Origin: an uncultured bacterium
Lineage (GTDB): Bacteria > Verrucomicrobiota > Verrucomicrobiia > Verrucomicrobiales > DEV007
DNA length: 64,000 nucleotides
Assembly (NCBI GenBank): GCA_963977015.1
Contig: CAXBMO010000004.1
Location: forward strand, 320,001 to 384,000
Reading direction: 5' to 3'
Shown here: piece by piece, positions 1 to 38,085 of the stretch
How the letters are laid out: each line of letters starts with the position of its first letter
Numbering within the stretch: the first letter of the stretch is position 1
Translations under genes and position numbers: made by a program
The notes under the pieces: generated by a model
What the model saw: only the letters and a program-made list of their open reading frames with translations
What the model was told of the DNA's origin: nothing
Database searches by the model: none

Positions 1-259
1 CGTCCAGGGTATCGCCAAAATTGGCAAAGTTTCCGCGCAGAGCCACGAAGTGTCCATCGAAGGACCAACACTTGGCACGGGCTTCTTCGAGCGCTTCGGG
101 ATCTCGATCAAACCCGATCACCTGCGCTCCATGCTCCAACAGTTCAAATGCGTGGCCACCTCCACCGAGCGTCCCATCAACGATCCGCTTGCCATCATCC
201 GGCTGGAGATACTCGATCGTCTCATCAAGGAGAACTGAAGTGTGGTAGTGGCTTGTCAC
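1..259 (-). CDS. rsmH: 16S rRNA m4C1402 methyltransferase RsmH (MraW), 5' part, truncated by window edge
   Basis: Manual minus-strand translation from GTG at 259: MTSHYHTSVLLDETIEYLQPDDGKRIVDGTLGGGGHAFELL...IGFDRDPEAL...GNFANF. It carries the RsmH HxSVLLxE, DGTLGGGGH and DRD motifs. Not in the ORF track; exact start uncertain. Confidence 0.92.
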   Translation of the reverse strand, partial: MTSHYHTSVLLDETIEYLQPDDGKRIVDGTLGGGGHAFELLEHGAQVIGFDRDPEALEEARAKCWSFDGHFVALRGNFANFGDTLD

Positions 260-638
260 CGTCCAGGAAGGAAGCCTTGAATTGTTACCTTTTCCACCCC
301 CGTGCTCCGTCCGCGCGTTTTTATCGCGCGGGCGGAACAAGGCTTGGGCGAAAAAGCTAGGTTGTGCGTAAATCGCGGCTAAACCCATAGTGTTTCAAGT
401 TTCAGTGTTTCGCCGGAACGGATTTGCCCATGTTTCTCGCATTTTTGAGACAAATCGCAGGCTCGGCGTCGTAATATCGATCTGAGAAAGCTTACTAAAT
501 TTTATTTTACTCACCCGGTCAATCATTAATTATAAATATTAAATATTTCCGTAATTTAATCTGGTTATAGCATCCAAAATCCTCGTGACCAGCTTTAGGC
601 TTGAGAATTACCGCAATACGGCTTAGATCGGAGCAACC

Positions 639-15042: not shown

Positions 15043-15113
15043 TCCCGCCAGCTCGCAACTCGCTGTGCCAAAATCGTGATTGCCGAAGCTTTCGCCACCT
15101 GAAAGAGTAAGGG

Positions 15114-15683
15114 ATGGATTCAGCTTCCTCCGCGAACGAACTGTTCAGCAGTTCAACGGGCCTCATCGCTTTTGCCTTTCTGCTGACGCTGCTTGTCGGG
15201 CTTTTGTGCCTTCGGATTGTTCGCGATCCGGAAATGTATTTGCAGCGAACCGGAAACCAACGCGGAATCACCGCCGATGACCCCACCGATCGAGATCAAC
15301 TTCTGCTCAACACTCGGCGTCGCGGCTACGTGGGACTCGGCCTGGTCTGTGTTTGCCTGGTGATCCTGGGAATTGCCACGGTTGGACTGCGCAGCGCTAC
15401 GCGGCGCCTTGCGGAGTTCGAGGCCGACCGCCATCAGTTGGTTCAATCGCTCAGAACTCAAACCGCTCACGTCAAAAAACATCAGGCGACTTCGGAATTG
15501 GATAGCGGGATCAAGTTGCTCGAAGAAGTCGTCAAAACGGGCGAGGCCGATGGAACGATTGACCAGGAAAAACTGAATGAGGCGTTGAAAGTGCTGGATC
15601 GGGGAATTGGCAAACTCAATGGCGTGGCGGAAATCTACCAGGAGGCGATCGAAGCTAACGAAAAGCTGGAAGACAAGGAATAG
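15114..15683 (+). CDS. Hypothetical protein with two TM helices and a C-terminal coiled coil
   Basis: Co-oriented ORF filling the gap between the OMF and MFP genes; two hydrophobic segments. Confidence 0.7.
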   Translation: MDSASSANELFSSSTGLIAFAFLLTLLVGLLCLRIVRDPEMYLQRTGNQRGITADDPTDRDQLLLNTRRRGYVGLGLVCVCLVILGIATVGLRSATRRLAEFEADRHQLVQSLRTQTAHVKKHQATSELDSGIKLLEEVVKTGEADGTIDQEKLNEALKVLDRGIGKLNGVAEIYQEAIEANEKLEDKE

Positions 15684-15766
15684 AGTGATTTCGCGACCTT
15701 TTGGTCGAAACTGTGCGTAAATTGGGAAAGACGTGTGTCGGCCTCCCGTTACCAAAACCCTTGTTC

Positions 15767-19900: not shown

Positions 19901-20145
19901 GGCGCTTTCGGGCGATCCTGCTCACTTCCATCACCACCTTTGCCGGGCTCATGCCACTGATGTTCGACAACTCGATCCAGGGTCAGTTCCTCATCCCCAT
20001 GGCGGTGTCACTGGGATATGGAATCCTCTTTGCGACCACCATCACCCTCTACCTGATTCCCTGCGCTTACCAGATCAACTCGGATATTGGCAAGGGACTG
20101 GTTTGGTTGAAGGATTGGTATTTGCGCCCGTTCCGATCCGCGTAA
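16984..20145 (+). CDS. RND efflux permease (AcrB/AcrD/AcrF family)
   Basis: 1053 aa; GLVVDDAIVTAEN, GVVVNDSLVMVD, RFRAILLTSITT. Confidence 0.95.
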   Translation: MIRWFANNDIAANFLLIAILFAGIYTAMFRVPLQVSPTYEFESIFVKMNYRGGTPRDVEKSIIIPIEEAIQDLPGIAKLWTYANPGRGWVLAQMEDGVDRRALLEEVKTRVDRITTFPSETEKPDVYIPDSNSFREVIKVAITGNLTTKELRHAAERVRNELMEADGISQVELVGERPYEIAIEADQEKLRSYGIGFQEISDAIRRSSVDLPAGTIQSSSGDLTVRTRGQAYTAPEFASIPIRAADGADLRLGEVATVKDGFEEGEQLVRFNGEPAMMVEIMRHDKESALEVSRLVHEYVDSAALRFPPGIHLYAWDDESLSIRGRLGTLTTSLIQGCILVFIVLALFLRPSVALWVVIGIPVSFAGGILCMPWLGLSANLMSVFGFIIVVGLVVDDAIVTAENIYSKLKTGIDPLEASVIGTKEVAVPVTFGVITTIVAFLPLLYFQGHWGNFAKQIPPVVAPVLIFSLIESKLILPAHLKHLKIGRAKFNFFTRFQKRIADGLETFVEKVYQPSLKFAIEHRYSVCAAFFAMALLMIGYWQGGRLGFVSMPSVDRLRITAYIDLPNDTPLEQTDLYVKRIASKVDQLKAEFVDQGTGRSLITNVHEQTGDYDRGSSIVKESEGEVAIEILPPSQRKSPGPRNSVIANRWKELVGELPEAQSFRIRAEQSGRGRSGESREEEPIEIELRGPSSAKKVDIAHQIKDLLESYEGISDAYTQVRGDLDELEITLKPRAAELQLTQQSLASQIRQAFYGEEAQRVQRGTEDIRVMVRLTLEERQSLHTLDTMRVRTPGGSDVSLASVADVKMVKVPGRIERIDGAEVIEIKALPVDESIDIMGIAETSSPEIQAIVNQGDGLSFRYTGFIAENADSKRRTIIGAIALMLALYGLLAIPFKSLTQPIFVLLAVPFGVVGALLGHIIMGITPSYLSIFGMLALAGVVVNDSLVMVDFINQRRAEGMPLKEAIIIAGARRFRAILLTSITTFAGLMPLMFDNSIQGQFLIPMAVSLGYGILFATTITLYLIPCAYQINSDIGKGLVWLKDWYLRPFRSA

Positions 20146-21625: not shown

Positions 21626-23959
21626 TCAATTGGCAGCTCGGACCTGGATCATCCGCTCGCAGGAACGACCACGATCATCGATGGCACGAACCGTGTAGGG
21701 ACCAACGATGGGAGAATCCCAAAACAAGGTATCCTCGGGCGGACCGGAGCCAAGAAACTCCTTTCCCGCGTACCAGAAAATGCGCCGCGCATCCGCATCC
21801 GCCGCCACCCGCAAGGGAATGTGAGTGAGTTCACCGCGCAGCGTGTAAATCGTATCCGGCTCTGGAGAAACGATTCGAAGCGGCGTTCCGGCGGACGCTT
21901 CGGCTGATCCTGCGCCGTGCCGAAACGGCGGAGGCTGGTTCATCGCGATACCGGCTTCGCGATAGAGTTGCAGAAGATCCGACGGCCAAAACTCGTAGAC
22001 TTTTCTGCTCACCTCTCGTGTGCCGTCATTCTCTTCCGGGCGAAGACGAAGACCGGTTTCCGCATCGATCGCCACCTGGCGGTGGATCGCGCAGGTGTCG
22101 ATCGGCGAACGGCCCGGAATAAACCAGCCCTCTCGAGAAGTCGGACAATGGGTATTCGGCATCTGACCGGAAACCGCACAGAGATTGATGCGACGAAGAT
22201 TGAGCCCGGTGGGCTGGGCAACGTAGCCGGATTCGTCAGGCTGATGCGCTCGAAGGGATCCGATCATGTCAAAGAGCAAAGGCGCAGTGGCTTCCCGCGC
22301 CACAAAGGAGGCATTGCCCGCCCCCCGAAAGTCTCCGATCCAGAGACCCAGAACATAGCGATCGAACACCGCAACCGCCCAGGCATCGCGGAAACCATGG
22401 GAAGTTCCGGTCTTCCAATACACCGGGCGATCGCGGCTGATTCCGTGGCGGCGGGACATGCCGGGCGCAGGAATGTCCCGAATCATGGAGAGGGTCAGGA
22501 AGGCGGCTTCCGGAGAAAGAATCTGGTGGCTGACGATCGGACCGGGATCCTCGTCGGAGTAGACAAGCTGTCGAAGATTCCCATCGTTGGGCAGAATGGT
22601 ATAGAGCCGGACGAGCTCCTCGAGACTGACCTCGGCACCACCGAGCGCAAGCGAGAGCCCGTAGTGGGACGCGGGATGCGGCAAGTCGATGCCGCCCCGC
22701 TGGAGGAAGGCGTAAAAGCTGGGGCGCTTCAGCGTCGCCATCAACGCGACGGCGGGAACATTTCGGCTGCGTTGCAACGCTTCCGTCGCCGAGAGAGGCC
22801 CGCTGTATCCTCGATCAAAATTCTCCGGGCTGTAGGCCCCAAAGGAGGCTTTGGCATCCTTGAGCAAGGTGTTGGGATGAATGATGCCCTGTTCGAGACC
22901 GAGGGCGTAAATGAACGGCTTGAGCGAAGACCCAGGTGAACGCCGCATTCGTATCCCGTCCACCTGTCCCTGAATCGGGACGTTCCAGAAGTCGCCAGAG
23001 CCAAGATAGGCGCGAACTTCCATGCTCGTCGTATCAACGAGCAGAGCGCTCGCATTGCGGAGTCCGATGCCGTGGTGACGCCGGAGGTAGGCACTCATGG
23101 ATGCTTCCAAAACCGCCTGTTGATCGCGATCGATCGTGGAGCGGATCTCAGGAACGAGCGGAAATTGTCTCAGGAGACGACGCGTCAGATGCGGCCCCTC
23201 GAAGGGACGCGTCGCCGGCTGGGAAATGGTAAACTGAGCGTCGAGCGGATCTGCCGCGAGACCTTCCTGGTCGCGAAATCGGGCGAACAGCCGGGCCTGG
23301 GCTTCGGCGAGATGCGGATTGCGCGAACCATCCCGAGCCGGCGTCCGGCGAGCCGGGCTTTGCGGAATCACGCTGAGGGCAATGGCTTCGCGGCGAGTTA
23401 ACTCGGAAGGCGCTTTGTCCAGATAGATTCGACTGGCCGCCCCGATCCCTTCCAGATTTCCACCGTAAGGCGCAAGATTGAGATAGGCTTCAAAGATCTC
23501 TTCCTTGGAGTAGTGACGCTCAAGCTGAACAGCTCGAAACATCTGCGCGACCTTCCCGGGAATGGAACGGCTCCGCATCCCAAAACGCAGCCGGGCCAAC
23601 TGCATCGTAATGGTGGAACCTCCCGTGCGCGGGCCGCCCGTGACCATGTTCCAGGCGGAACGAACAATCGCCGATGCATCCACGCCGGAGTGCTGATAGA
23701 ACTTGCGATCCTCGTGAAGCAAGGTCGCCCCCTGCAGCTCTTCGGAGATGTGGGCCAGCGGCGTGAAGATGCGATATTTGTCGTCCTGACTCAGGGTAAT
23801 GCGGAGAACCTGGCCGGAACGATCCAGGACAACCTGGGAGAATCCCGCGTTGGACGGATAGATTTCCGGCCGTGGCAGGAAAAGCCAAATGCCCGCCAAA
23901 AGCAGGACCATGCCGCTCGCAATTCGAACCGATCGTTTCCAGTGCTTCATGTTCACCAC
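21626..23959 (-). CDS. pbpC: Penicillin-binding protein 1C
   Basis: Transglycosylase EDRKF and GGSTITMQLAR; transpeptidase S.LK, SRN, KTGTS; C-terminal BiPBP_C-like domain; directly follows the macroglobulin gene. Confidence 0.95.
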   Translation of the reverse strand: MVNMKHWKRSVRIASGMVLLLAGIWLFLPRPEIYPSNAGFSQVVLDRSGQVLRITLSQDDKYRIFTPLAHISEELQGATLLHEDRKFYQHSGVDASAIVRSAWNMVTGGPRTGGSTITMQLARLRFGMRSRSIPGKVAQMFRAVQLERHYSKEEIFEAYLNLAPYGGNLEGIGAASRIYLDKAPSELTRREAIALSVIPQSPARRTPARDGSRNPHLAEAQARLFARFRDQEGLAADPLDAQFTISQPATRPFEGPHLTRRLLRQFPLVPEIRSTIDRDQQAVLEASMSAYLRRHHGIGLRNASALLVDTTSMEVRAYLGSGDFWNVPIQGQVDGIRMRRSPGSSLKPFIYALGLEQGIIHPNTLLKDAKASFGAYSPENFDRGYSGPLSATEALQRSRNVPAVALMATLKRPSFYAFLQRGGIDLPHPASHYGLSLALGGAEVSLEELVRLYTILPNDGNLRQLVYSDEDPGPIVSHQILSPEAAFLTLSMIRDIPAPGMSRRHGISRDRPVYWKTGTSHGFRDAWAVAVFDRYVLGLWIGDFRGAGNASFVAREATAPLLFDMIGSLRAHQPDESGYVAQPTGLNLRRINLCAVSGQMPNTHCPTSREGWFIPGRSPIDTCAIHRQVAIDAETGLRLRPEENDGTREVSRKVYEFWPSDLLQLYREAGIAMNQPPPFRHGAGSAEASAGTPLRIVSPEPDTIYTLRGELTHIPLRVAADADARRIFWYAGKEFLGSGPPEDTLFWDSPIVGPYTVRAIDDRGRSCERMIQVRAAN

Positions 23960-26900
23960 TTATTTCACGACGATTCGGCCCGGTAATCCGCGCGCCCGCA
24001 CCGAGCGATCATACATCGAATCCGCCAGAACCGGAGGCACGATGAACTCACCTCGCCGGGTAGGGGTGATCTTGTAGCGCAGCAATTGCACCTGCGGTTG
24101 CGCCACGCCGAAGAGCACGACCCGATCCTCCCGAACCTCGTTGAACGCCATTCCCGGCAAGGTCGAGCGCCCGGCCGACAAACTCTCCCGCACCACCTCA
24201 AACCCACCGGGCAACAGATCGGTTAGTGCGACATTGGTGATGGTTTGCCCCTGCTTCAGACTCCGGAGTTGGAGCTGAACGGTAATCGGCTCACCCAGGG
24301 TCGCTTCCGCCAGCGGGTTCCCGTCCTTGTCGAGATAGAGTCGCTCGACCTCAATGCCTTCGCGCAAGGGCTCCGTCGGAACGGTTCGCTCGAAACCGCC
24401 TTCCGTGACCTGATAAAAAATCCCGGACGGCCCGCCTCGGGACGGTGCCGCCGAAAACTTGACCGCATCAGCAGAAAGCGGGACCCCGGCCCGAACAAGC
24501 TTGGTTCCTTCCGTCGGCAGCGCCAACGTGGAATCATCGACGACCTGAGCCAACTCCAACTGAATTGGGAACTGGTCGGCCAGCTCAGAATACCCTTTGA
24601 GAGCCAACACACTGTAGGCAGCGCTGAGGGTACTGAACTCATTGCGGAGAAGAGGATCGAGCAGCGTGCGCAAATCATCACCACTCAGCTTCTTGGCTTC
24701 TTCGGGAAAGTGCCGAGTCAGAATCGCGAGATACTGAGCATCCTGAGCCAGTGCCGGATGAAAGTCATCTTCGGGCGCATCGTCCTTGGCCGGAGGTCGT
24801 TGGCTCGCTCGCTGATAGCCACGAATGAGCCGAGCCGCTTCGGTGCGCTGCTTGAGCAATTGATACGAACCCGCCAGATAGACCGCGGTCAGATCCTTCT
24901 GCCAGGCTTCTTCCTCAGCATTTTTTCTCAGGTAGTCACGCAGGTTGAGAATGTAGTTGGTCGTTACCACGCCGTTCCGGGTCAGCACATAAATGGCGTA
25001 GGCCTGGTCGCGGCAGTCCTGCTTCTCGAGCTTGGTCACTGCCGCCATTTTCCGAAGATTACCCAACGCCCGGGAATGAAGGGCTGGAGGAACCTCAAAT
25101 CCCGCGATCTGAGCCTCGCTGAGATAGTGCGTGGCGTAGATGCTGAGAAAATCGATCGCAGGCGTCTTGGCCGAATACCAATAGCCGAACCCGCCGGAGC
25201 TATTCATCCGGTTCCGCAACATTCGGCAGGTCGCATCCACCTGCTTCTGCACTTCTGCCTTGGTCAGGCCAAAGTCTGCTTCGTCAGCAATGAGCAACCG
25301 GGCCAGTGATCCGCTCACGAGTTGTTCCGTACAGCCATGGGGATACTTGGCGAGGTATTGATCCAAGCCGCGAGTCAGGCTGAGAGGCAACACCGAGGCG
25401 CTCGCTTCCGCCTGATGAAATTCTTCGTGCAAGTCGCGCCCCAGCGACACGTCGAGAGTCGATTTCCCGGTGTAACCGCTTTGCACAATGGTCGTGTAAG
25501 GCGTCGCCGGCCGAATGCTGAGCGTGGACGTTCGGGTGGAGGTTTCGTTGCCGCCGCTCGCCGCAAATTTGAGGGAGGCGCTGCCCAGTTCCCCGGTCGC
25601 ACGAACCCGGAAGGTCAACGTTTCCTCGCGCTCACGGGGAATGGTCATTCCAGCGGGCGGAGGCGTGATCACCTCAAGGTGCTTGCTTGGAGTGACGGTC
25701 AGGCGAATTTCAGCCTCTTCGCCAGTCTCAGGATCCAGGTTATTCCCCAACGTTACAGAGACATCAAACTCGTCACCCGGCGCGGCAAACGTCGGCACCC
25801 CGGGATTGATCAACACCGGGCTGACCAACGTGGTGCGGCTCTCGGCGTGGCCCATTCCATCGCGCGACGCCGCGATCGCCATCACCCGAAGGCTGCCATT
25901 GAAATAGTCGGGCACGTCATAGGTCACTTCGCGGACTTCGGGACCCGCATCCAAAATGCCGGACCAAAACACGACCGGCGCATCGGTGAGCCGCTTGAAT
26001 GGATTGAGCTGAAAATCCGCACCGCCTCCAAAGGCGGAAAGTTGCTCCTGAATGTGACGATGCTCGGGAATGAGGAGATCCAGGATCTGGTAAGTTTGGC
26101 AGAGCAGGGCCCGCTTTCGCTCGAAGTGCGGCAACGGTTTGGGCGTTTCATAGCGGGTAACCTGGAGGATTCCCTCGTCCACCGCGAAGATCGCAATCTT
26201 GCAGTTTCGATCGGCCTGGTAAGGGATGCGCAACGGTTTGCCGGGACGCGCCTTCTCCGCCGGATCGAGGGTCAATTTGATTTCGCGGGAATCATTGACC
26301 ACGCGAAACGGGGTAACCGCGTAACTGAGCGGGCTCATGAAGATTTCCGGAGAATCCAGGGATCGCACAAACGTCACATTGACGTAACCAGTTCCCTCCA
26401 GTTCGTCCGGAACCGCGATCGTCTGAACCGAACTGTTCGTGGTCGTGGTGAAGTATTTGTGCGCGTAAACGCGATCGCGCTCAATCGTGAGCAATCCCGT
26501 GCCGGTAAACGGAGCCGTGATGCTGAGCTCAATCTCTTCGCCACGCCGATATTCCGGCTTCGCCAGTTTGACGAACAACTCCGCATTGTCGTCGAGCGAC
26601 CGGCTCCGGTTTCCCTTGCCAACCACGGAGTATCCCATCTTCGAGAGAAGGTTCCCCTCGGCATCGGAAACCAACAAGCTGAACTCACCGGGCGCCTCGG
26701 TCGGCAGGGCCAGTTCAAAACCATCGGACTGGCCGATGCTCAGCGTTCCCGAGGCAACCTCACGCTCTTTCTTGACCGATTGATAGGCAAAATCGCCACT
26801 GCCCTGTTCTTTCAGAATGGAAACGTAGTAGGTTTCCTCAACGCTATAATTGAGATCCTGGAGATCGATCTTCTCCAATTGCGGATTCACGGCCACGAGC

Positions 26901-29806
26901 TGCACCTTGCGAATCCCGTTTGCCGGAATATAGCGCAATTCCCCATCCGGCTTGTAGCCGACGGCGTGTGGCAGGGGCGAAACCAGGAGACGATTGCTGT
27001 AGGCCTTCACGCTTCTCCCGCTATCGGGTTCGAACACCTCGGCTTGAAAGGAAACGCTGTAGGTCGCCGTTCCAATCGCGCTCATATCGATCGGAATCGT
27101 CACCGCCCCGTTGTCGTCCGTCTGGCTCTTCTTGGTGGCCCAGGTGTGGTACTTGGCCGCCTTGAGATTGCGGTCGAAAAAGACGTAATCCGGAAAGTCG
27201 TCGAAAGAGAAGCGAATCGGACGAGCGGTGACACTGCCCGATACCGAACGCTTTGTGGCCGGGGTCCCGTAGAGGTTCTGAGCATTGACGCTCGCGCTCA
27301 ACCCTGCGGGCGGGATCCAGCCTTTGCCGGACTCCGGCGTAACCTTGGTGCTTACCTTCATCGTGTCCGGCAGGAACTCTTCCACTCGGGCGGAGGTCGA
27401 GGCGAGCAAGGTATCCCTCTGCTTCTTCCCATCCTCATCTTCCTCGTGAACGAGGTAGGCATACAGTTTGTACTCGCCGGTGGAAGACGCGTATTCCGTC
27501 GGGCACTCAAAGTCCGCAAACCCGGACTGCGGCAACGAAACGAGTTGCTCCAGAATGGTTGAGTTGCGGGCGTCTTGAACCACGACCTTGATCGGCAATC
27601 CCGCCAGTTCGCCGCTCCAATCCCGCGGCTTGATGATAAGACCGGCGTGGATCGTATCTCCCGGTCGATACACGCCGCGTTCCGTAAACACAAATCCATC
27701 CAGATCACCAGCGGTGGGCGCGGAGAGACCACCGACATCAAACCGGGAGAAGCTGACGTGCTGCTGATAACGATTAAAGGGGATGAAACTGAGATCGCGA
27801 TCCTTGCGCGCCACGATCGCAACCGGCTGACTCTCGTCTCGAGCGGCTTCGTCCACCGCGGCCAACGTCGCACGCCCAGTTGAATCGGTTACCCCACTCA
27901 CCAACGGCACGCCGTTTTTTCCCAGGACCTGGACTTCCACCGCATCAACCGGAACTCCCAACCCTAACGACTGCACAAAAACGTCGCGCGTCCGGTCGTG
28001 GTTCACCTTGACGACAAGCCCCAAATCCGTGATGAGGACAAACGCGTTATCCCCTTCCTGACCGCCGCCCTTGACGGCTTTCTCTTCCTTGGGATCCCAA
28101 CCCAGCACTCGCAGAAAATAGAGACCCCGATTCAGATCGGGATCGTCCTGGTCCTCCAGATCGAGGAGACGGGAAAAGTCGAGGGTGGAATAATTCGCAG
28201 CATACGAGTCCGAGGAAAGGATGCTTTGCAGCTGCTCGGTGTAATGCCCGAGATTGGTGTCGTTGAAGTTTCGGGAAAAACCGGGGCGGTTAAAATTCCC
28301 GCTCGTCTGGCTCACCAGGTGGTTGATCTCTCCGGCCGGGACGCGACCCAGTCGATACTTCAATCCCGGGAGGTTGCGGGACTTCACCGTGATTTTCCGG
28401 TCTCCAGTCATCGCGAGCAGCCCGCCAAAGCGACCGAGCACATACAGCTCCCTTGGCCCCTGGGGCACGTTTCGCGTGGCGCGATATTCCTCCGCCAATC
28501 GATACCCTCCCAAAGCCGGCGTATCCTTGTCCACCACACAGAGGAGCTGCCGTTCTTCGGGAAGCCGGTCGAAGGTGAAGTCGTAGCGGTCAAAGTGCGT
28601 CCGGCGCTGATCCACGGGCTTGTCCGCATCCTCTCTCGCGTCCGGCGTCAGCTTCACTTCCGTCGACGTTGCGAGGATCTCCTGGCTGACCGAGTCAACC
28701 GTCCAACCCGTCTCCTCCGGCATCAACGGATCCGGATTCTCAGGCTTTTGCCACTTCGGAAGCAGGTAAACCTTGAGATGCTTCAGAAAATCCTCCGGGC
28801 TGGTCAGCCCCTGCGTCCGAATACGCAAGTGCGGTTCGGGCTCGCCGCTATCCTTCCGACGCGTCCCGACAAACACATCCTTGATCTGAAAATAGCTGTA
28901 GAGATCCGGAATCTTCACTTTGCCGGGGATCGCCTTTTCAGTTCGCGAATCCCCCAACGCCACCGGCATCCCGGACTTCAACGTCACCTGGACGAAGTCT
29001 TCTTTTCCCGGCAGTTCAATCGGCTTGGTCCGGACATAGGCGAGACGATCGAAGTCACCCAACCGAATCTCCTCGAGCCGCTCGTCTCCGGCAAACAAGG
29101 GCGCGTCCCCCAGAATCGCAATGTCCAAATGCTTGCGCAGGTCCACCTCCTTCACGCCATGGCTGAACTTGTAAGTGACGACCGCCTGCTTGATCTCCGG
29201 ATTTTTGGGGTTCTGATAGAACTCACCTCTGACCACCTGAGCTGTGAATTTGGCGGTCGCGAATTCCAGGACCGGTTCCTGCAGCGCAACCGTATCGACC
29301 AACAGCCTCTTCGGCTGCATGACCACTTCGTAGGTTCGATCCGGCAACCAGTCGTCGCTAGGGGTAAAGATGAGAACCTTGTCGTTCAGCCATTTCCACG
29401 CGCCGGCGAGCTCGGGTTTGAGCCGAATCCCCTCGGTCACGACACCCTTGCTTGGTTCCGCCAACAGCGCGAGGGGAGCCGAAGCCTCGCTGAACTGCAA
29501 TCGCAACGATGCAGGAACCAACCGGTTCTCCCCATCGATTCTTCGCACGGCGGCAATGCCCGGTTCGCTTACTTTGATCGTCACCAAATTGGGAGGAACC
29601 TTGTCAGGCTGCGCCGCGAGCCAGATCCACACGCTCCCCAGGATCAGCGCAAGAGCGGCCAACGAGATGGAAAATTTTGGTCGCGCGGAGAGCCACTTCC
29701 AGGCGGGCCTGGGCCATGGTGGCGGAGTCCACTTCACCGAAAACGAACCAACCAGGTTCGAGAGAAACGATCCGAGTCGGGACAGGAATTTGGACATAGA
29801 TAACAA
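23960..29806 (-). CDS. Bacterial alpha-2-macroglobulin (YfhM-like)
   Basis: 1948 aa; FTERGVYRPGD, AVDEGIL, thioester motif YPHGCTEQ, DLLPGGFE, REDRV; start is TTG 29806 or ATG 29797. Confidence 0.95.
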   Translation of the reverse strand: MLSMSKFLSRLGSFLSNLVGSFSVKWTPPPWPRPAWKWLSARPKFSISLAALALILGSVWIWLAAQPDKVPPNLVTIKVSEPGIAAVRRIDGENRLVPASLRLQFSEASAPLALLAEPSKGVVTEGIRLKPELAGAWKWLNDKVLIFTPSDDWLPDRTYEVVMQPKRLLVDTVALQEPVLEFATAKFTAQVVRGEFYQNPKNPEIKQAVVTYKFSHGVKEVDLRKHLDIAILGDAPLFAGDERLEEIRLGDFDRLAYVRTKPIELPGKEDFVQVTLKSGMPVALGDSRTEKAIPGKVKIPDLYSYFQIKDVFVGTRRKDSGEPEPHLRIRTQGLTSPEDFLKHLKVYLLPKWQKPENPDPLMPEETGWTVDSVSQEILATSTEVKLTPDAREDADKPVDQRRTHFDRYDFTFDRLPEERQLLCVVDKDTPALGGYRLAEEYRATRNVPQGPRELYVLGRFGGLLAMTGDRKITVKSRNLPGLKYRLGRVPAGEINHLVSQTSGNFNRPGFSRNFNDTNLGHYTEQLQSILSSDSYAANYSTLDFSRLLDLEDQDDPDLNRGLYFLRVLGWDPKEEKAVKGGGQEGDNAFVLITDLGLVVKVNHDRTRDVFVQSLGLGVPVDAVEVQVLGKNGVPLVSGVTDSTGRATLAAVDEAARDESQPVAIVARKDRDLSFIPFNRYQQHVSFSRFDVGGLSAPTAGDLDGFVFTERGVYRPGDTIHAGLIIKPRDWSGELAGLPIKVVVQDARNSTILEQLVSLPQSGFADFECPTEYASSTGEYKLYAYLVHEEDEDGKKQRDTLLASTSARVEEFLPDTMKVSTKVTPESGKGWIPPAGLSASVNAQNLYGTPATKRSVSGSVTARPIRFSFDDFPDYVFFDRNLKAAKYHTWATKKSQTDDNGAVTIPIDMSAIGTATYSVSFQAEVFEPDSGRSVKAYSNRLLVSPLPHAVGYKPDGELRYIPANGIRKVQLVAVNPQLEKIDLQDLNYSVEETYYVSILKEQGSGDFAYQSVKKEREVASGTLSIGQSDGFELALPTEAPGEFSLLVSDAEGNLLSKMGYSVVGKGNRSRSLDDNAELFVKLAKPEYRRGEEIELSITAPFTGTGLLTIERDRVYAHKYFTTTTNSSVQTIAVPDELEGTGYVNVTFVRSLDSPEIFMSPLSYAVTPFRVVNDSREIKLTLDPAEKARPGKPLRIPYQADRNCKIAIFAVDEGILQVTRYETPKPLPHFERKRALLCQTYQILDLLIPEHRHIQEQLSAFGGGADFQLNPFKRLTDAPVVFWSGILDAGPEVREVTYDVPDYFNGSLRVMAIAASRDGMGHAESRTTLVSPVLINPGVPTFAAPGDEFDVSVTLGNNLDPETGEEAEIRLTVTPSKHLEVITPPPAGMTIPREREETLTFRVRATGELGSASLKFAASGGNETSTRTSTLSIRPATPYTTIVQSGYTGKSTLDVSLGRDLHEEFHQAEASASVLPLSLTRGLDQYLAKYPHGCTEQLVSGSLARLLIADEADFGLTKAEVQKQVDATCRMLRNRMNSSGGFGYWYSAKTPAIDFLSIYATHYLSEAQIAGFEVPPALHSRALGNLRKMAAVTKLEKQDCRDQAYAIYVLTRNGVVTTNYILNLRDYLRKNAEEEAWQKDLTAVYLAGSYQLLKQRTEAARLIRGYQRASQRPPAKDDAPEDDFHPALAQDAQYLAILTRHFPEEAKKLSGDDLRTLLDPLLRNEFSTLSAAYSVLALKGYSELADQFPIQLELAQVVDDSTLALPTEGTKLVRAGVPLSADAVKFSAAPSRGGPSGIFYQVTEGGFERTVPTEPLREGIEVERLYLDKDGNPLAEATLGEPITVQLQLRSLKQGQTITNVALTDLLPGGFEVVRESLSAGRSTLPGMAFNEVREDRVVLFGVAQPQVQLLRYKITPTRRGEFIVPPVLADSMYDRSVRARGLPGRIVVK

Positions 29807-31020: not shown

Positions 31021-32496
31021 CTACCTTCGGGCGGAACGTCCATCCTCCGAGCCGGAACGCTGGGTTCCTCGCTTGTTGGGGAAGAGATCGTACTTGTCCA
31101 GTTTTTCGCGCAAGGTCACCCGGGAAACTCCCAGCAACCGGGAAAGCTTGCTCTGGTTGCCTCCTGCATAGTTGATGGCTTCGGAATAGGCGGCCCGCTC
31201 GAATTCTTCCTGCAAAATGGAGAACACCCGTGCTTCCTCTCCCGCCTCCGCTTTTTGCAGCAAATCACGCATCCGTTTTGCCACATTCAGCTCATCCGAC
31301 ACGGCGGAGAGTGGAACAGCGGTCAACAGCTCGTCGACCAGTTGCGCGGTGATGGCATACCCTTGATTCTGGAGGAGCGCTCTTCGTATGACGCTTTCGA
31401 GTTCCGTTACATTTCCCGGCCAGGAGTAGTCCATCAGCCGGTCGTACGCTTCGGGTTCAATTTCCGGAACGATCACGTCCAGGGAGGCGGCATACTGGTC
31501 CAGGATGTACTCAGCCAGCATTCGCACATCGCCTTCGCGCTCTCGAAGTGGCGGCACATAGACGTGAGCGGCATTGAGCCTCAGGAAAAAATCCTCGTTC
31601 ACTTCCTGCTCTTGAATCGCGTTCTCCAGATCGGAATTTGTCGCCGCTATCAACCGGACATTCGCCGGAATTTTCTCGAAACCTCCAATCCGTGTGAATC
31701 CCTGGTCCTGAAGTAGTTGAAGCAGTTTTGCCTGAATCTGGGGTTCGATTTCGCCCAGCTCATCCAAAAACAGGGTCCCACCATGGGCTTGCTCGATCCG
31801 CCCTATTCTGCGGGTGATAGCACCGGGAAACGCGCCTTTCTCATGCCCAAACAACTCGCTCTCCAGCATCGGCTCCGAGATCGTTGCACAGTTCACGGCG
31901 ATGAACGGTTTGTCAGCCCGGTCGCTATGTTGCCAGATGGCCCGGGCGACGAGATTCTTCCCTGTCCCGGCCTCGCCTCGAATCAAAACCGCGTCCGTTT
32001 TGTCTGCGATCCGACCCATATCCTTGTAGACTTGGTGCATGGCCCGGCTGTTGCCGATGATGAAATCCGTATCCTTCTGTTTGGCCGCGAGTTGCCCAAT
32101 TTGGACTCGCTTCTGGGTCAACCGAAACGCCTCAACCGCCCGCTCGACGGCTTCGAACAGCTCATGAGGCTGGTAGGGTTTCAAGATGTAGTCGTAGGCT
32201 CCTTTTCGAGTCGCTTCGATCGCCAGACTTGCCGTTCCGTGGGCAGTCATGAGAATCACCGGCAGGTGCGGATTTGACTCTCGCAACTTCTCCAGGAGCT
32301 CCATTCCCCCGACTTCAGGCATGCGAAAGTCGGTCAAAACAAGGTCGTATTTGGGCCCGCTTGCCGCGAGTTCCAACCCTTCCCGACCATTCTTTGCCCA
32401 ATCCACGGCGTATCCTTCCCGCTCCAAAAGTCGCTTGGTCACTCGGCCAACAGCTGGCTCATCTTCCACCAAAAGCAGAATCGGGTCCGAAGCCAT
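31021..32496 (-). CDS. NtrC-like response regulator (REC-AAA+-Fis HTH) with degenerate sigma54-interaction motifs
   Basis: REC (VEDE, TDFRMP, KP); GEAGTGK; ESELFGHEKGAFPGA; LFLDE; WPGNVTEL; GNQSKLSRLLGVSRVTLREKL. Confidence 0.92.
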   Translation of the reverse strand: MASDPILLLVEDEPAVGRVTKRLLEREGYAVDWAKNGREGLELAASGPKYDLVLTDFRMPEVGGMELLEKLRESNPHLPVILMTAHGTASLAIEATRKGAYDYILKPYQPHELFEAVERAVEAFRLTQKRVQIGQLAAKQKDTDFIIGNSRAMHQVYKDMGRIADKTDAVLIRGEAGTGKNLVARAIWQHSDRADKPFIAVNCATISEPMLESELFGHEKGAFPGAITRRIGRIEQAHGGTLFLDELGEIEPQIQAKLLQLLQDQGFTRIGGFEKIPANVRLIAATNSDLENAIQEQEVNEDFFLRLNAAHVYVPPLREREGDVRMLAEYILDQYAASLDVIVPEIEPEAYDRLMDYSWPGNVTELESVIRRALLQNQGYAITAQLVDELLTAVPLSAVSDELNVAKRMRDLLQKAEAGEEARVFSILQEEFERAAYSEAINYAGGNQSKLSRLLGVSRVTLREKLDKYDLFPNKRGTQRSGSEDGRSARR

Positions 32497-32563: not shown

Positions 32564-32593
32564 CTGTACAGAAAGTTTACACCAACTGTACAG
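32564..32593. promoter_or_regulatory. Candidate operator/UAS: two CTGTACAG palindromes 22 bp apart
   Basis: CTGTACAGA at 32564 and 32586; also reads TGTA-N9-TACA at 32565-32581; lies between the regulator and the divergent operon. Confidence 0.5.
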
Positions 32594-32762: not shown

Positions 32763-33305
32763 ATGAAAGCTCAGTCTTCACTTTATCTCTTCTTTACCTG
32801 TTCCCTTTTCGCATCTCCATCCATTTCGAATGCGGAGCCACTTCGCGATTCGGTCATGCGCCCAAGCCTCGGCGGAGGTCAGATTTACCGGACCCAAGCC
32901 AACCCGGTCAACACGGGCAACTTCAAAACTGGAGTTCAGATTGAAGGAAACCGGGTGCTCTTGACCCACAATGGCGGCCGATGGGTTGAAGATTCCGTCC
33001 ATGTCGCCAACATCGCGGAACTAGGCAAGGACCGGCAGAGTGCGGTGGAACTGGTAACGGTTGTTCCTCATCAGCGCCTGAACCTACCTCCGCAAAACCT
33101 GATGTCGGTAAGCGGGAATCAGTGGAGTGAGCATACGCAGTCTCAATCCACCAAACGAGACGAAATCATTCACACGTATTCCCCCCCTGCGGAACTCACT
33201 CCCCGCCAGTACCCCACACGGCCAACCACAAAAGCAACCACTGCAAAACCGAAAAGCTCAGGATTTCTCTCCAACCTCTTCGCTTCGCTCTTCGGCACGA
33301 AGTAG
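32763..33305 (+). CDS. Secreted hypothetical protein
   Basis: Signal peptide (MKAQSSLYLFFTCSLFASPSISNA), beta-rich core, Thr/Pro linker, amphipathic C-terminus GFLSNLFASLF. Confidence 0.7.
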   Translation: MKAQSSLYLFFTCSLFASPSISNAEPLRDSVMRPSLGGGQIYRTQANPVNTGNFKTGVQIEGNRVLLTHNGGRWVEDSVHVANIAELGKDRQSAVELVTVVPHQRLNLPPQNLMSVSGNQWSEHTQSQSTKRDEIIHTYSPPAELTPRQYPTRPTTKATTAKPKSSGFLSNLFASLFGTK

Positions 33306-33341: not shown

Positions 33342-35468
33342 ATGAAAACTATGGGTATTTTCAGGTCTAACTTCAAAGCGATCACGGCAGGCTTGTTGGC
33401 CTTGTCCGTCGGCGGCCAAGCTGCCATTGCCGAGAACCTCCAATTCGTCGAAACCGCCGAAGTCAGCAAAGCTGATCTCCTTCAGGAACTCGTCACGATC
33501 CAAAAGCAGGCCGAGATCCAACTCGAGCATCACCGCAGAGAGGCGTTGGAATTCCAATCCCGCGCCGAGCGACTGGAGGGTCTTCAGCAAAAGGGCTACG
33601 CATCGGTGGTTGAGGTTCGGGAAGCCAACCTGAACACGGAAAAAGAGGAACTTCAGGCCAACAGCTTTGCCGCCATTCATCAAATGGCGAGCGAGATGGT
33701 TGACTTCGTCTCCACGGAAAACTTCGGACCGGCATCGGAACAGAAGCCAACCCTGAACCTGAGCCTCCCAACCGTCACTGTCGATCTCGCCGGAATTCGG
33801 TTAATGGGCTACACGCGTCCTGCAAACGAAGAGTTCGCCGAGGTCGCCTTCGACTACCTCTATAACCAGCAGGAAAATGCCCGAGCTGCCGTTCTTTCCG
33901 CAGATTCGGACAGCCGGGTGGCGCAGTGGAACCGGACCCTGAACTTTCCAGGCGCCCACCCAGCTGAAATCCGCCACATTCAGCGAAAAATCGCCAACAC
34001 GGAAACCCGCTGGCAGTTGGGTGGATTGGACAGGCTCATGATCGAACGCGACCTCCAGCGTTTGGAGCGCTTCGGCCGCCACTTGTCGCTCATTGAAGAC
34101 GGCGATGATCTTCCCTGTGCGTTTCCAGTTTTGAGCCAACCCCTGTTTCTGGGAGCTGGAGAAAACGTCCTCTCTCTGGAGCTCAACGATGAATCGTTGG
34201 CTCTGGTTCTTCCCGTCGCCGCAGCGATGGCCAGTCATGAAGGCCCGGTCCTCGTCCAGGAATCCAGACTGAATGATGCCGAGCGGAAACTCCGATGGAT
34301 CAAACGCGCCTATGACCGCGGCGCCGCCAGTTCCCGGGAATACGACCAGGCACATCTGGATAGCCACATTGCGAATGAGGTTCTGCAAGGAATGAAAGCC
34401 AACCTCGAAGCTGAGAAACTGAACTTCGTCAGATTGGCAACCCTGGCGCGGGAGAGAGGTTTGGAACTTCCCTCCGAGGGCGATCTGCAAAAAGAACTTC
34501 CCTCAATGGAAGATCTCCTCACCGAGATCCGGACCTACCGGGAAGGATCCACCCGGAGCACGTCAGTGCTTCTTGGCCTCGCCAACCGATTCCAGGAAAG
34601 CGCGCTCGCTTCGGCACAGGTTCAAGCCACCAAATTGGAGAAGGACTGGCACCAGGCCCAATGGGAAAAGAGCCAAAAACTCACCAACGCCAGGAAGTCA
34701 GAACTCGAACGCTTGGAGTCCAAATTCCAGCAGTCCACCGCAAAAACCATCGACGCGACGGAGAAAGAACAGCTCCGTTATCTGGAGTTGCAGCAATGGA
34801 TGAAAGCCTCCGAACTCCCCTCTGATCTGGAGCCTGATTCCGAGATCTCTGCGGAAATGATTCGCCTCGCCCAACCAGTTGCCGAAGCACGGGTCATTGC
34901 CGCTCAACACTATCGCTCAGCCCGCGAAATTGACCGCGACTACCGCTTGGATTTGCTTGGCAAATTGGACAGTCTTCATCAGCGGGGAAAAGCCCGAAGC
35001 AGCGAAGTCGCCAACGCCAAACAGAATCTCGCCATCTCGGAAGGCCGGTTGCAATCATCCGAACATCATTTGATGTCCATCCTCTCCGAGAAGCAGCTCA
35101 TCGCCAGCCTGATGGATTCCACCGATGCCAATGGGAAGGTGAATCTGGCTCAGCTCGGAGGTTCGCCCATGCAGCTCATCATCGAACTTTGTCACCATCA
35201 ACTCCGACCTGATCCAGGTATTATCCAGGAGTTGGAAGCCCGGCTTGAACAAGTCACGACCCGTCGTGACAAGCTGGCTGAACTCGCGGCAAAAGGTTAC
35301 GCATCAAACTTGGAAGTCACTCAAATGAAAGAAGCCGTCAACCATTACACCATCGCCTTGGGAGGCTTTCAAGGCCGGGAAGACATGGGTAAACTCCGCT
35401 CCGAACTCGTCGATCACGGATTGCAGCCAACTGGCTTGCTTCCGGTCTCGGGAACACCGGCGAAGTAG
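33342..35468 (+). CDS. Secreted all-helical protein with repeated MFP/TolC-type hairpin-tip motifs
   Basis: Signal peptide ending AAIA; repeats such as RLEGLQQKGYASVVE, WIKRAYDRGAASSRE, KLDSLHQRGKARSSE, KLAELAAKGYASNLE. Confidence 0.8.
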   Translation: MKTMGIFRSNFKAITAGLLALSVGGQAAIAENLQFVETAEVSKADLLQELVTIQKQAEIQLEHHRREALEFQSRAERLEGLQQKGYASVVEVREANLNTEKEELQANSFAAIHQMASEMVDFVSTENFGPASEQKPTLNLSLPTVTVDLAGIRLMGYTRPANEEFAEVAFDYLYNQQENARAAVLSADSDSRVAQWNRTLNFPGAHPAEIRHIQRKIANTETRWQLGGLDRLMIERDLQRLERFGRHLSLIEDGDDLPCAFPVLSQPLFLGAGENVLSLELNDESLALVLPVAAAMASHEGPVLVQESRLNDAERKLRWIKRAYDRGAASSREYDQAHLDSHIANEVLQGMKANLEAEKLNFVRLATLARERGLELPSEGDLQKELPSMEDLLTEIRTYREGSTRSTSVLLGLANRFQESALASAQVQATKLEKDWHQAQWEKSQKLTNARKSELERLESKFQQSTAKTIDATEKEQLRYLELQQWMKASELPSDLEPDSEISAEMIRLAQPVAEARVIAAQHYRSAREIDRDYRLDLLGKLDSLHQRGKARSSEVANAKQNLAISEGRLQSSEHHLMSILSEKQLIASLMDSTDANGKVNLAQLGGSPMQLIIELCHHQLRPDPGIIQELEARLEQVTTRRDKLAELAAKGYASNLEVTQMKEAVNHYTIALGGFQGREDMGKLRSELVDHGLQPTGLLPVSGTPAK

Positions 35469-35511: not shown

Positions 35512-36336
35512 ATGCGATCCCACTATCTTAGCTCGATCCTCTGCCTCGCTTCAGCTCTTTCGGCAAACGCCCTGGTCACCAACCAAAGCAATCATCTCAC
35601 CACATCCGAAGAAGCCCTCCAAAACCACATCCGGAAAGTTATACCCAATAGCAAATCCTTCCCCTATTGGGGAAATGTGGGCCGCGTCCACCTGAGCACG
35701 GGAATCTATCTAGGAAATGGCTACGTCTTGACCGCAGCCCATGTAGGACCAGGAACCTTCCTACTTTCCGATGGTAGCGAGTATCCGGTGGTTCGCGGCT
35801 CGGCGGCTGTCTACCGAAATGCAGACAACTCGCAGACTGAGCTCTGCATCTTTAAAGTCGAAAGCCGCCGGAAGGATAGCCTGCGGAAATTGCCCTCCAT
35901 CAACATCAGATCCACGCCTCCAGACGTGGGAGAACTGATCCTCATGATCGGGCATGGTGCCAGCCAATACCCGGGCGACACCAAATGGGTCCAGGACGGA
36001 AAAAAGCGTTGGGGATGCAACCTGGTTTCCCGCATTGCCAGGCAACCCTTCGCCAACAGCTTTGGCCAAACCCATGGCTACTATACCAGGTTCGACCACG
36101 GATTGTTTGACTGTCAGGGGGCTTCCGGAGATTCCGGAGGCCCGGCATTCTACTATGATCAGGAGCAACAAGAGTGGCTCTTGACCGGGATGCTTGCCGC
36201 GGTGACCACTCCGGTCCATTTGGAGGAAACCAAGCACGGCGATTCCACCTTCATTGCTGACTTGAGGCCCATGTTGAGCAACCCCATCAAGATCATCGAC
36301 TCCCGCCTGGAATCCAGCCGGGTCGCTCGCAAGTAG
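35512..36336 (+). CDS. Secreted trypsin-like (S1) serine protease
   Basis: Signal peptide; YVLTAAHV and GDSGGP motifs. Confidence 0.88.
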   Translation: MRSHYLSSILCLASALSANALVTNQSNHLTTSEEALQNHIRKVIPNSKSFPYWGNVGRVHLSTGIYLGNGYVLTAAHVGPGTFLLSDGSEYPVVRGSAAVYRNADNSQTELCIFKVESRRKDSLRKLPSINIRSTPPDVGELILMIGHGASQYPGDTKWVQDGKKRWGCNLVSRIARQPFANSFGQTHGYYTRFDHGLFDCQGASGDSGGPAFYYDQEQQEWLLTGMLAAVTTPVHLEETKHGDSTFIADLRPMLSNPIKIIDSRLESSRVARK

Positions 36337-36372: not shown

Positions 36373-38085
36373 TCAACGAAACGTCGCCTTCAACGGTTCG
36401 GCACGTTCGAACAGCAACCTCACTTCTTCGTCGGAAAGTGCGCGACGCCAGATCGCCAACTCATCAACGTTCCCTCCCAACCCTGCCAAATCTCCCGCAT
36501 TGCCATTCGTTCCGATTCGCAACCGATGCGTTGCGGGAAAGTGGGAACCCAGCGCCTTGTAGTTGAGATTTCCAACCTGCTCCCCATCGACAAACGCGCT
36601 CAGGGTTGACTCCCCTGGGTCGACGACCATGACCACTTGGTGCCAATTCCCATCACGCAGGACAGGCCAACGCCCACCGATCTGAGCCCTGTTGGAACCG
36701 TTGCACAGTCGAACCTGGAGCACATCACGATGGAGCGAAATCAGCCAACCCGGATCGGTCTTTTGGACCCCGCCATTGCCGAGCACCCGAATTTCCTTGC
36801 TGGCTCGGCCCCTCGATGGTGCCAATTGGATCCACAGACTCACCGTCATGGGTTCGTCGCGTAGCGCAAAGGTGCGCACTTTCCCAAACACGAGTCCGGA
36901 AGTCTCGTCGAGCTGGACCCCTTGATCAAATTTGCCCTCCGCGCGCCCCGGCATACCCACTCCCATTCCCTGATAGGGCGCCGTGCCGGCATAACCACGG
37001 GTCTCAGCATCGAGCGGCCAATATCCGAACAGGGACTCCGCTTCCGGCGGCAAAACTCCCGTCATGACAACCTCAGGACCCGGCGCGTCCGCAATCCCCA
37101 GGGGATCGGCAACGAGATCCCGTCGTTCCGGGTCAAAATACCAGGTGGCAAACCAACCCGCTCCAATCGCCAGCGCGATTAGCATGAGAATCAGAATCGT
37201 CGCGGAAGCCGATTTTTTGGTCACTTCACGGGAAACCCGTGCCACCTCTCCCGTCGTCGGCAGCTTCATCTTCGACACCCCAACATCCTCACCCGACGTT
37301 GCCGCCGGGGTGTGCATCGCCCGGGTGAACTGCTCCGAATTCTGCAACGCCGATGTATGGTGATCGATGATTTGAAGAAAGTAGGGAAAGGCGGACGAAC
37401 CGGACGCCGCCAAGTCTGCGCGATACTCCTCGGGATCGAATTCGATCCTCCGAAAATAGACATTCCCGGTATCGTCATCAAAAATCACATAACGCGCCCG
37501 GATGTCCTCGGGATTCCGCGGTTCGCCAACGGAACCTACGTTGATGATGTAACGCTGGTTGGGCTGACACTGAAAGTCCTCGTCCGGTTCCTGACTCACC
37601 AGACCATCCGCTTCCACAAACACGGTCGGATGATGGGTGTGACCGATGAAGGTGCACCAATGTCCGGTTGCGCCGAGATCTTCGCAGGCTTTCTCCACCG
37701 TCTCGACGTAGTCGAACCGGTCGGGAGCGGCCACTTCCGCGTGAACAAAGAGCAGGTTCTCCACTTCCGTCGCGTAGGGAACGTTGTTGAGAAACTCCAG
37801 TGCTTCTTCGTCCAACAAGGCGCGAGTGTGGGCGATCCCAGCTTTCGCGTTATCATTGAAATACGAAGAATCGAGACGGCCACAAGCCGCCGCATCGTGG
37901 TTGCCAAGGACAAACGCATGGGAGTTTTCCCGAATGCTTTGCAAGACTTCCGCAGGCCTCGGCCCGTATCCAACGGCATCTCCCAGACAAATCAACACCT
38001 CGCATTCGTTTGCCCGAATATCCGCCAACGTCGCTTCCCAAGCTTGGTTGTTCGCATGAATATCGGAAAAAATGGCGTAACGCAT
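36373..38085 (-). CDS. Metallophosphoesterase fused via one TM helix to a LamG/concanavalin-A-like domain
   Basis: SDIH, GDAVGYGP, GNHD, GHTH, NVGSVGEPR; TM ATILILMLIALAIGAGWFATWYF; TVSLW...WHQVVMV...FVDG...GNVDELAIWRRALS. Confidence 0.88.
   Translation of the reverse strand: MRYAIFSDIHANNQAWEATLADIRANECEVLICLGDAVGYGPRPAEVLQSIRENSHAFVLGNHDAAACGRLDSSYFNDNAKAGIAHTRALLDEEALEFLNNVPYATEVENLLFVHAEVAAPDRFDYVETVEKACEDLGATGHWCTFIGHTHHPTVFVEADGLVSQEPDEDFQCQPNQRYIINVGSVGEPRNPEDIRARYVIFDDDTGNVYFRRIEFDPEEYRADLAASGSSAFPYFLQIIDHHTSALQNSEQFTRAMHTPAATSGEDVGVSKMKLPTTGEVARVSREVTKKSASATILILMLIALAIGAGWFATWYFDPERRDLVADPLGIADAPGPEVVMTGVLPPEAESLFGYWPLDAETRGYAGTAPYQGMGVGMPGRAEGKFDQGVQLDETSGLVFGKVRTFALRDEPMTVSLWIQLAPSRGRASKEIRVLGNGGVQKTDPGWLISLHRDVLQVRLCNGSNRAQIGGRWPVLRDGNWHQVVMVVDPGESTLSAFVDGEQVGNLNYKALGSHFPATHRLRIGTNGNAGDLAGLGGNVDELAIWRRALSDEEVRLLFERAEPLKATFR

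Follow-up and report, generated by a model that had tools for sequence, protein, structure and literature searches.

Six adaptor-type hairpins in a single polypeptide of a Verrucomicrobiales bacterium, and a possible partner among outer membrane factors

Within the window, by which we mean the whole 64,000-nucleotide (nt) stretch analysed here (contig CAXBMO010000004.1, positions 320,001 to 384,000, of an uncultured marine bacterium of the Verrucomicrobiales), one forward-strand open reading frame (ORF) encodes the protein P0001, which consists of six hairpins of the kind found in membrane fusion proteins (MFPs, the periplasmic adaptors), with conserved tips and with no other domain of an MFP or of an outer membrane factor (OMF, TolC-like). 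No Pfam family was matched by P0001 above threshold, and no NCBIfam model by P0001, its two neighbour proteins or its two paralogs; the family to which it belongs has no name and neither a Pfam nor an NCBIfam model. The lipoyl families Biotin_lipoyl and Biotin_lipoyl_2 gave no match to P0001 at E ≤1 and none to the 22 family members at E ≤0.1, and Pfam finds no HlyD_3 or HlyD_D23 beta-barrel or membrane-proximal domain in P0001 or in the other members, unlike the true MFPs of the same genome, which the HlyD beta-barrel families do match. A SPOR match on residues 645-696 (19 bits against a cut-off of 21) falls on hairpin 6 and was judged a chance helical match. Judged by its translation, the N-terminus resembles a Sec signal peptide: a basic start is followed by the hydrophobic stretch AITAGLLALSVGG, by AIA and then by E. 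The leader holds no Cys and therefore no lipobox. Residues 1-38 are disordered in the model predicted by AlphaFold2 (AF2), with a local confidence score (pLDDT) below 50, and hydrophobic leaders also begin the relatives of P0001. The ORF and the features of its product, with helices (H), tips and strands as modelled by AF2, are the following:

33342..35468, + strand: ORF of the six-hairpin protein P0001, stop codon included; 708 amino acids (aa), full-length relatives known
33342..33431, + strand: signal-peptide-like N-terminus, about residues 1-30, read from the translation
33468..33716, + strand: hairpin 1, H43-84, tip 85-88, H89-125; RLS-spaced tip
33750..33821, + strand: linker with strands 137-140, 147-149, 152-154 and 157-160; conserved motif phi-P-G-phi-S...G...F-T
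33828..34097, + strand: hairpin 2, H163-200, tip 201-206, H207-252; variant tip FPGAHPAE, conserved E209
34188..34454, + strand: hairpin 3, H283-325, tip 326-330, H331-371; best match to MFP hairpins
34560..34808, + strand: hairpin 4, H407-445, tip 446-451, H452-489; variant tip LTNARKSE, E454 invariant, Q485-W486 conserved at the base
34851..35117, + strand: hairpin 5, H504-547, tip 548-552, H553-592; G549 and E555 conserved
35163..35423, + strand: hairpin 6, H608-650, tip 651-655, H656-694; L648, G652 and A654 nearly invariant

The first-pass annotation of this DNA had reported a helix-turn motif recurring six times at intervals of 100-123 aa, and both the positions and the spacing are borne out in the translation, where QKGYASVVE stands at 83, FPGAHPAE at 202, DRGAASSRE at 325, LTNARKSE at 447, QRGKARSSE at 547 and AKGYASNLE at 650. 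The strong tips are centred on G85, G327, G549 and G652, the weak ones lie at about 204 and 449, and the distances from tip to tip are 119, 123, 122, 100 and 103 aa. The pattern [KR]G.A[SR]..E has four copies in P0001, whereas 20,000 residue shuffles never produced two or more; with the looser pattern G.[AS][SR]..E, the same number of shuffles gave three copies twice and four copies never. Given the confirmed positions and these shuffle counts, the recurrent tip motif is real and far beyond chance.

Conservation was read from an alignment of 22 sequences (A2), made up of P0001, P0003-P0005 and 18 phmmer matches. Excluded were P0002, which is the window's own product with three residues fewer, P0016 and P0021, which are short, and P0022, which matches in two stretches. 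The turns of all six hairpins are conserved in the alignment, and just two of its columns are invariant, that of W486 and that of E454, which belongs to the weak tip 4. In hairpin 1, R77-x3-L81-x6-S88 has exactly the spacing of the RLS motif, which in MexA comprises R119, L123 and S130 according to PMC4446572; passages of the same paper and of PMC13328181 describe this tip as meeting the OMF tip (VGL) tip-to-tip. The equivalent residues are K644-L648-S655 in hairpin 6 and K541-L545-R552 in hairpin 5, and four of the six tips of P0001 are of the RLS type. Two copies had initially been set apart as weak. By sequence, hairpins 2 and 4 do carry variant tips; E454 of hairpin 4 is invariant, both sites lie on helical tips, and both hairpins are linked to others of the chain by the profile comparisons described below.

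The predicted structure agrees with the motif count. AF2 model 1 of P0001, built on A2, reaches a mean pLDDT of 86.3 and a global score (pTM) of 0.84, and every one of the six motif sites falls on the turn of a helix-turn-helix hairpin; a second model, of a paralog from the same genome about 24-26% identical to P0001 (26% over 607 residues), shows the same six hairpins with a pLDDT of 89.0 and a pTM of 0.87 on a re-ordered 24-row alignment; the alignments, of 22-24 sequences, are shallow. The repeated hairpins that the first-pass annotation expected of a structure prediction are therefore present in both models, which, as modelled, hold them in a fixed mutual arrangement. Strands are confined to the linkers of model 1 (four in 137-160, then 277-279, 501-503 and 599-601); they measure 1-4 residues, so that no strand is membrane-spanning, and the longest helix has 46 residues. 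The earlier statement that lipoyl and beta-barrel segments are lacking accordingly stands at the level of domains, for which Pfam gives no match, and had overlooked short linker strands of 3-4 residues. The linker between hairpins 1 and 2, whose P143 and A150 columns rank near the top of A2 in conservation, might be the remnant of a lipoyl half-domain. From the models we infer that hairpins 4, 5 and 6 would lie side by side with their tips at the same end, because the linkers between hairpins 4 and 5 and between 5 and 6 have only 14-15 residues against a hairpin length of about 60 Å. Heptad stripes at positions a and d run along 11 of the 12 helices and do not discriminate a barrel from a bundle.

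That the hairpins are repeats of one unit was examined by splitting A2 into six hairpin sub-alignments and comparing them pairwise by hhalign, a form of the repeat detection that had been proposed for this protein. Hairpins 1, 3, 5 and 6 recognize one another with probabilities of 93-97%; hairpin 4 is joined to hairpin 2 (92%), hairpin 5 (91%) and hairpin 3 (87-90%), and hairpin 2 to hairpin 5 (77-81%) and hairpin 3 (59-66%), with no direct match for the pairs 1-2, 1-4, 2-6 and 4-6. Linked pairs score 27-57, far above the controls, whose highest scores are 18.0 with reversed-column profiles and 13.4 with column-shuffled ones. Judged by these profiles, all six hairpins are homologous, and the pattern of linkage therefore arranges them along the chain as types A-B-A-B-A-A.

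The sequence affinity of this unit is to MFPs. When the A2 profile was compared with PDB sequences, 12 rows appeared at E ≤10, none of them an OMF, and the six best were all MFPs (four AcrA entries, a MexC-like protein and the fused TriAB, E 6.6e-4 to 0.017), all aligned on hairpin 3, with AcrA 2f1m_A in first place (E 6.6e-4, profile positions 292-358). In the own genome, hidden Markov models (HMMs) of the single hairpins, run on 9,944 ORFs with a minimum length of 150 aa, found seven matches beyond the three paralogs; all seven are HlyD-family proteins matched on their hairpin, and all carry HlyD_D23 and HlyD_3 in Pfam. Six of them were matched by the HMM of hairpin 3 (best E 3.4e-9), four by that of hairpin 5, three by that of hairpin 4 (E 1.4e-4 to 5.2e-4), one by that of hairpin 6 and none by those of hairpins 1 and 2, and the partial matches in relatives' genomes are likewise HlyD-family proteins. 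None of the approximately 21 OMF genes of the genome, in which a genome-wide OEP search counts 40 repeats, was matched by a hairpin HMM, and the same search finds no OEP repeat at the three family loci, P0001 included, at the gathering score. The original wording "MFP/TolC-like" thus holds for its first half, with seven MFPs matched and no OMF, and fails for its second as far as sequence is concerned. A direct hhalign comparison of A2 with the window's own OMF and MFP, both weak targets because they entered as single sequences, stayed below a probability of 1%. On this evidence P0001 is best described, by its sequence, as a hairpin-only derivative of an adaptor. Three very short HlyD-family proteins of the genome, of about 270-340 aa (C3:50241, C12:122165 and C11:105681), have the hairpins closest to those of the six-hairpin family.

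Fold comparisons bring in OMFs as well as MFPs. With neither model did Foldseek return a match at E ≤0.001; OMFs make up most of the top rows of model 1, all under threshold (CusC 4k34_A, E 0.058, TM 0.11-0.2), and for model 2 OMFs are scattered among other helical proteins, with SilC 9rmm_D at rank 3. A fold search of model 1 with VIA-align against 48,161 chains gave mainly single-hairpin matches, with HlyD 5c21_A as the top row for hairpin 1 (Z 11.8) and further MFPs within the top 28, namely MacA 5nik_D (Z 9.7), LipC (9.7), AcrA 2f1m_A (9.4) and EmrA (9.1). As a pair, hairpins 3 and 4 fit the lower alpha-barrel of OMF protomers, with 188-197 residues superposed at a root-mean-square deviation (rmsd) of 3.0-3.6 Å and Z 8-9.3, as for TolC 8zar_G (197 residues, 3.0 Å, Z 9.3), TolC 5ng5_C (191 residues, 3.3 Å), TOprJ1 9j3d_A (193 residues, 3.3 Å) and CusC 4k34_A (188 residues, 3.6 Å); neighbouring hairpins would therefore stand side by side in the manner of a barrel wall. 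The same pair of the paralog model fits more poorly (CmeC 5.4 Å, CusC 4.8 Å). In the whole-model searches by Foldseek and VIA-align with both models, no solved chain covers more than about one-third of the query at low rmsd. Structure rows of the Atlas include OEP-labelled clusters and look-alikes of about 230 aa; one of them, a protein of 234 aa aligned over query residues 1-689 with a TM of 0.74 by the row itself, is compatible with ring closure and ambiguous in this respect. Shorter relatives of 30-260 aa were sought with A2 and none was found at E ≤0.001, a result that leaves room for two-hairpin relatives.

These likenesses raise the question of whether the protein might descend from an OMF rather than an adaptor, as a pseudo-trimer of the TolC-like lower alpha-barrel with three two-hairpin units and a lost beta-barrel. 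The superposition of hairpins 3 and 4, the sub-threshold rank of CusC and SilC, the OEP-labelled Atlas clusters and the order A-B-A-B-A-A all suit such an origin, as do OEP matches on hairpin 3 in 2 of the 22 members, which remain below the cut-off (18.3 and 17.4 bits against 22) and may be explained by the likeness in sequence between adaptor and OMF tips. The sequence searches speak otherwise, since OEP repeats are missing from the three family loci in a genome where 40 are found elsewhere, the hairpin HMMs collect seven MFPs and no OMF, and the PDB profile rows contain MFPs and no OMF; nor do helices of at most 46 residues and the lack of a membrane-spanning strand resemble an OMF, and we consider this origin very improbable. 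P0001 is not an ordinary member of the TolC family, which the first-pass annotation had named as the case against its own proposal, given the missing OEP match, the lack of any strand of membrane length and the shortness of the helices.

The family is divergent and narrowly distributed. A word-indexed search gives relatives at 62% (P0003), 54% (P0004) and 35% (P0005) identity, and an exhaustive phmmer search gives 23 proteins at E ≤0.001, 8 of them at ≤1e-10 and 2 at ≤1e-30, most of them of about 700 aa, colinear over the full length and 20-24% identical. P0003 is called "hypothetical protein" at NCBI, from a metagenome-assembled genome (MAG) of Verrucomicrobiota, and two of ten distant members are likewise "hypothetical protein" in MAGs of Verrucomicrobiota or Verrucomicrobiales. 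The A2 search of the own genome finds three full-length paralogs, on contigs C4, C20 and C9, and four partial matches. Among 60 relatives' genomes, full-length matches are confined to three others of the same genus; 400 other genomes of the order hold eight matches at E ≤1e-20, all within the family to which the window belongs (8 of its 118 genomes against 0 of 282 in the other families) and spread over three genera (2 of 2, 5 of 54 and 1 of 3), and 200 other genomes across the phylum gave none at E ≤1e-10. Among the sampled genomes, then, the family is confined to one family of Verrucomicrobiales, within which the subfamilies are 20-26% identical to one another and still colinear. The window's stretch is also contained in marine metagenome runs. 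The member at locus L038 (G555:C14:46933-48963) has one in-frame TGA inside an open frame of 956 aa.

The immediate neighbours of the P0001 gene are the following:

31021..32496, - strand: sigma-54-dependent response regulator, divergent, neighbour of the P0001 gene region
32763..33305, + strand: 180-aa secreted protein of no known family; ends 36 nt before the P0001 ORF, kept by close orthologs only
35512..36336, + strand: 274-aa secreted trypsin-like serine peptidase; starts 43 nt after the P0001 ORF, motifs TAAHV and GDSGGP

The order of regulator, 180-aa gene, six-hairpin gene and peptidase is kept at L010, the one readable ortholog contig, with 59-68% protein identity, and the 180-aa protein has just two homologs, apparently on the contigs of the close orthologs P0003 and P0004. 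This order, the same-strand gaps of 36 and 43 nt and the signal-peptide-like start of all three proteins would suit a role of P0001, in this subfamily, as accessory of a secreted-protease module, for example as a periplasmic inhibitor, a cage, or a factor for maturation or export. The other 11 family loci share only the family gene: the 180-aa gene is absent from them, and a trypsin-like gene occurs only at L038, 2.8 kb off and on the opposite strand. The fold and its tips are thus kept whether or not these neighbours are present, and a protease accessory appears rather improbable. A complex prediction of residues 39-700 with residues 25-180 of the 180-aa protein scored 0.00, which speaks neither for nor against binding. 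Elsewhere the family genes adjoin an L,D-transpeptidase, two bactofilins, pyruvate kinase and sulfatases, and a sigma-54 regulator also adjoins a distant member (L036). The C9-type paralog lies just downstream of the two bactofilin genes (L009 5546-7249, L023 10910-12597), and these genes are also close to its ortholog in another species of the same genus.

Several further observations concern this region and the rest of the window. In the peptidase, E (ELCIFKV) occupies the usual position of the catalytic Asp motif. The palindrome CTGTACAG is present twice, at 32564-32571 and 32586-32593, 22 bp from start to start, inside the 266 nt that separate the divergent response-regulator and 180-aa genes; from its sequence the pair could be a regulator-binding site. 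The -24/-12 sigma-54 promoter pattern is matched 4 times in the window, where 4.2 matches would be expected, and never upstream of 32763. On the reverse strand, 21626-29806 encodes a bacterial alpha-2-macroglobulin of 1948 aa (domains MG, bait-region and A2M) and, right downstream of it, a PBP1C-type transglycosylase/transpeptidase of 777 aa with a BiPBP_C domain, which we take to be a known periplasmic-defence gene pair. Also on this strand, 36373-38085 encodes a 570-aa protein that begins with a calcineurin-like metallophosphoesterase and ends with a LamG/concanavalin-like domain, and that has a predicted membrane helix as well. The forward-strand operon at 13615-20145 is of the resistance-nodulation-division (RND) efflux type and comprises, in this order, an OMF with two OEP repeats, an ORF of 189 aa with no Pfam match, an MFP (HlyD_3/HlyD_D23) and an AcrB-type transporter; it is the docking partner that the first-pass annotation had suggested.

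As to what such a protein might do, the best explanation of the whole is, at a confidence a little short of even, that P0001 is a Sec-exported, soluble, hairpin-only protein of the periplasm that engages OMF tips. It would have arisen by repeated duplication of an MFP hairpin with loss of the rest of the adaptor, and would be exported by Sec and remain soluble in the periplasm, where the chain would display six adaptor tips together, much like the hairpin tube of an MFP hexamer. The tips would then engage the periplasmic end of a trimeric, TolC-like OMF tip-to-tip, without an inner-membrane transporter, and the docked protein would gate, cap or hold open the OMF duct. To our knowledge, adaptor hairpins serve only to contact the OMF tip and to line the periplasmic tube, and since six is also the count of the adaptor hexamer, docking on an OMF trimer would, by analogy, be the most economical mechanism, held tentatively and at somewhat less than even chances. 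The stronger form of the proposal, in which a soluble one-chain pseudo-hexamer docks alone on TolC-like channels and sets their gate without an inner-membrane pump, seems unlikely.

Several points weigh against OMF docking. Among the neighbours compared and annotated, a gene for a pump, transporter, MFP or OMF as a conserved neighbour was found at none of the 12 family loci. The excess of conservation at the tips, itself a point in favour, is modest (1.99 bits against 1.77 for the rest, a value reached by 79 of 5,000 random window sets), and the Pfam hairpin families (HH_*) gave no match to P0001 at E ≤1. The VIA-align scores of Z 8-12 fall within the tool's stated background for helical proteins, and ESCRT-III, prefoldin, SMC, BAR and designed hairpins score much as MFPs do. 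The confidence that AF2 assigns to coiled coils may be too high, the alignments are shallow, and the pTM values of 0.84 and 0.87 speak to a fixed arrangement only, not to ring closure or a lumen. F-BAR 2v0o_A aligns on 39..447 at an rmsd of 3.2 Å over 136 residues, a range given by the first and last aligned residue in which stray residues occur, and hairpin 1, as modelled, may pack on hairpin 4, which would fit a compact bundle over an open ring.

Some of the same points would be expected of a periplasmic helical scaffold or holdase that reuses the hairpin and is unrelated to OMF channels, built either as six coiled-coil arms tied at their bases by beta elements, like the Skp/prefoldin "jellyfish", or as a compact 12-helix bundle. 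The lack of pump neighbours in 12 of 12 loci, prefoldin 1fxk_A at Z 9.4 together with the many generic hairpins that match as well as MFPs, the possible contact of hairpin 1 with hairpin 4, and the presence of three divergent paralogs per genome, which suit a general structural role, point in this direction; much of the conservation, however, lies at the tips and not at the bases (L81/G85/S88, G327, E454, G549/E555, L648/G652/A654), the sequence affinity is specific to MFP hairpins, and the high pTM of both models speaks against freely splayed arms, so that we regard a scaffold as somewhat unlikely.

The reading of P0001 as a hairpin-only adaptor derivative that would dock on OMFs can be set beside the known systems. 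In assembled pumps, six hairpins of MFP/HlyD-family proteins (AcrA, MexA, MacA, EmrA and HlyD) form a 12-helix tube. P0001 resembles them in its antiparallel coiled-coil hairpins of about 40+40 residues, the identical RLS spacing in hairpin 1, the similarity at the level of profiles, the number of hairpins, equal to that of an MFP hexamer, and the short strand that precedes each hairpin, as at the lipoyl-hairpin junction. It differs in that all six hairpins belong to one chain, for which the formation of a tube would follow by analogy only; in the lack of the lipoyl domain, which the hairpin splits in MFPs, of the beta-barrel, of the membrane-proximal domain and of an anchor; and in its gene, which is not beside a transporter or an OMF, and the distinct variant tips of hairpins 2 and 4. 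With the OMFs (TolC, OprM, CusC; OEP, PF02321) it shares a neighbouring hairpin pair that packs like the lower alpha-barrel of a protomer, twelve helices, the count of an OMF trimer, and a tip pattern G..S..E/D that resembles the OMF tip, whereas it is a monomeric chain of 708 aa without OEP at the gathering score, without the beta-barrel of four strands per protomer or the 67-residue helices of about 100 Å, and its sequence affinity is to MFPs. In every described system, as far as we know, the adaptor hairpin is found within a multidomain protein arranged six-fold around a transporter. No natural hairpin-only or six-hairpin adaptor-like protein was found in the literature as judged by titles and review passages. 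An engineered tandem-fused AcrA and the natural pair TriA/TriB are mentioned in passages of PMC4446572 and PMC13328181; like P0001 they offer more than one adaptor hairpin from one polypeptide or fixed pair, but they retain the full set of adaptor domains and act together with a transporter, whereas P0001 is a hairpin-only hexa-repeat.

If docking holds, OMF gating would be controllable from the periplasm without a pump, and P0001 would represent either a new class of OMF cap or an opener that makes an exit duct a pump-independent route between periplasm and exterior; in that case different OMFs, among the approximately 21 of the organism, might be the targets of the three divergent paralogs. 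At least four of these OMF genes, C9:171384, C2:479307, C3:184556 and C42:1793 (the last at a contig start), lack an MFP gene within about 7 kb. P0001 would in addition be a ready-made probe, of fixed stoichiometry, of the contact between adaptor and OMF tips. Without docking too, it defines an unnamed, well-folding protein family, and would be a clear case of the excision of a domain followed by its hexa-duplication.

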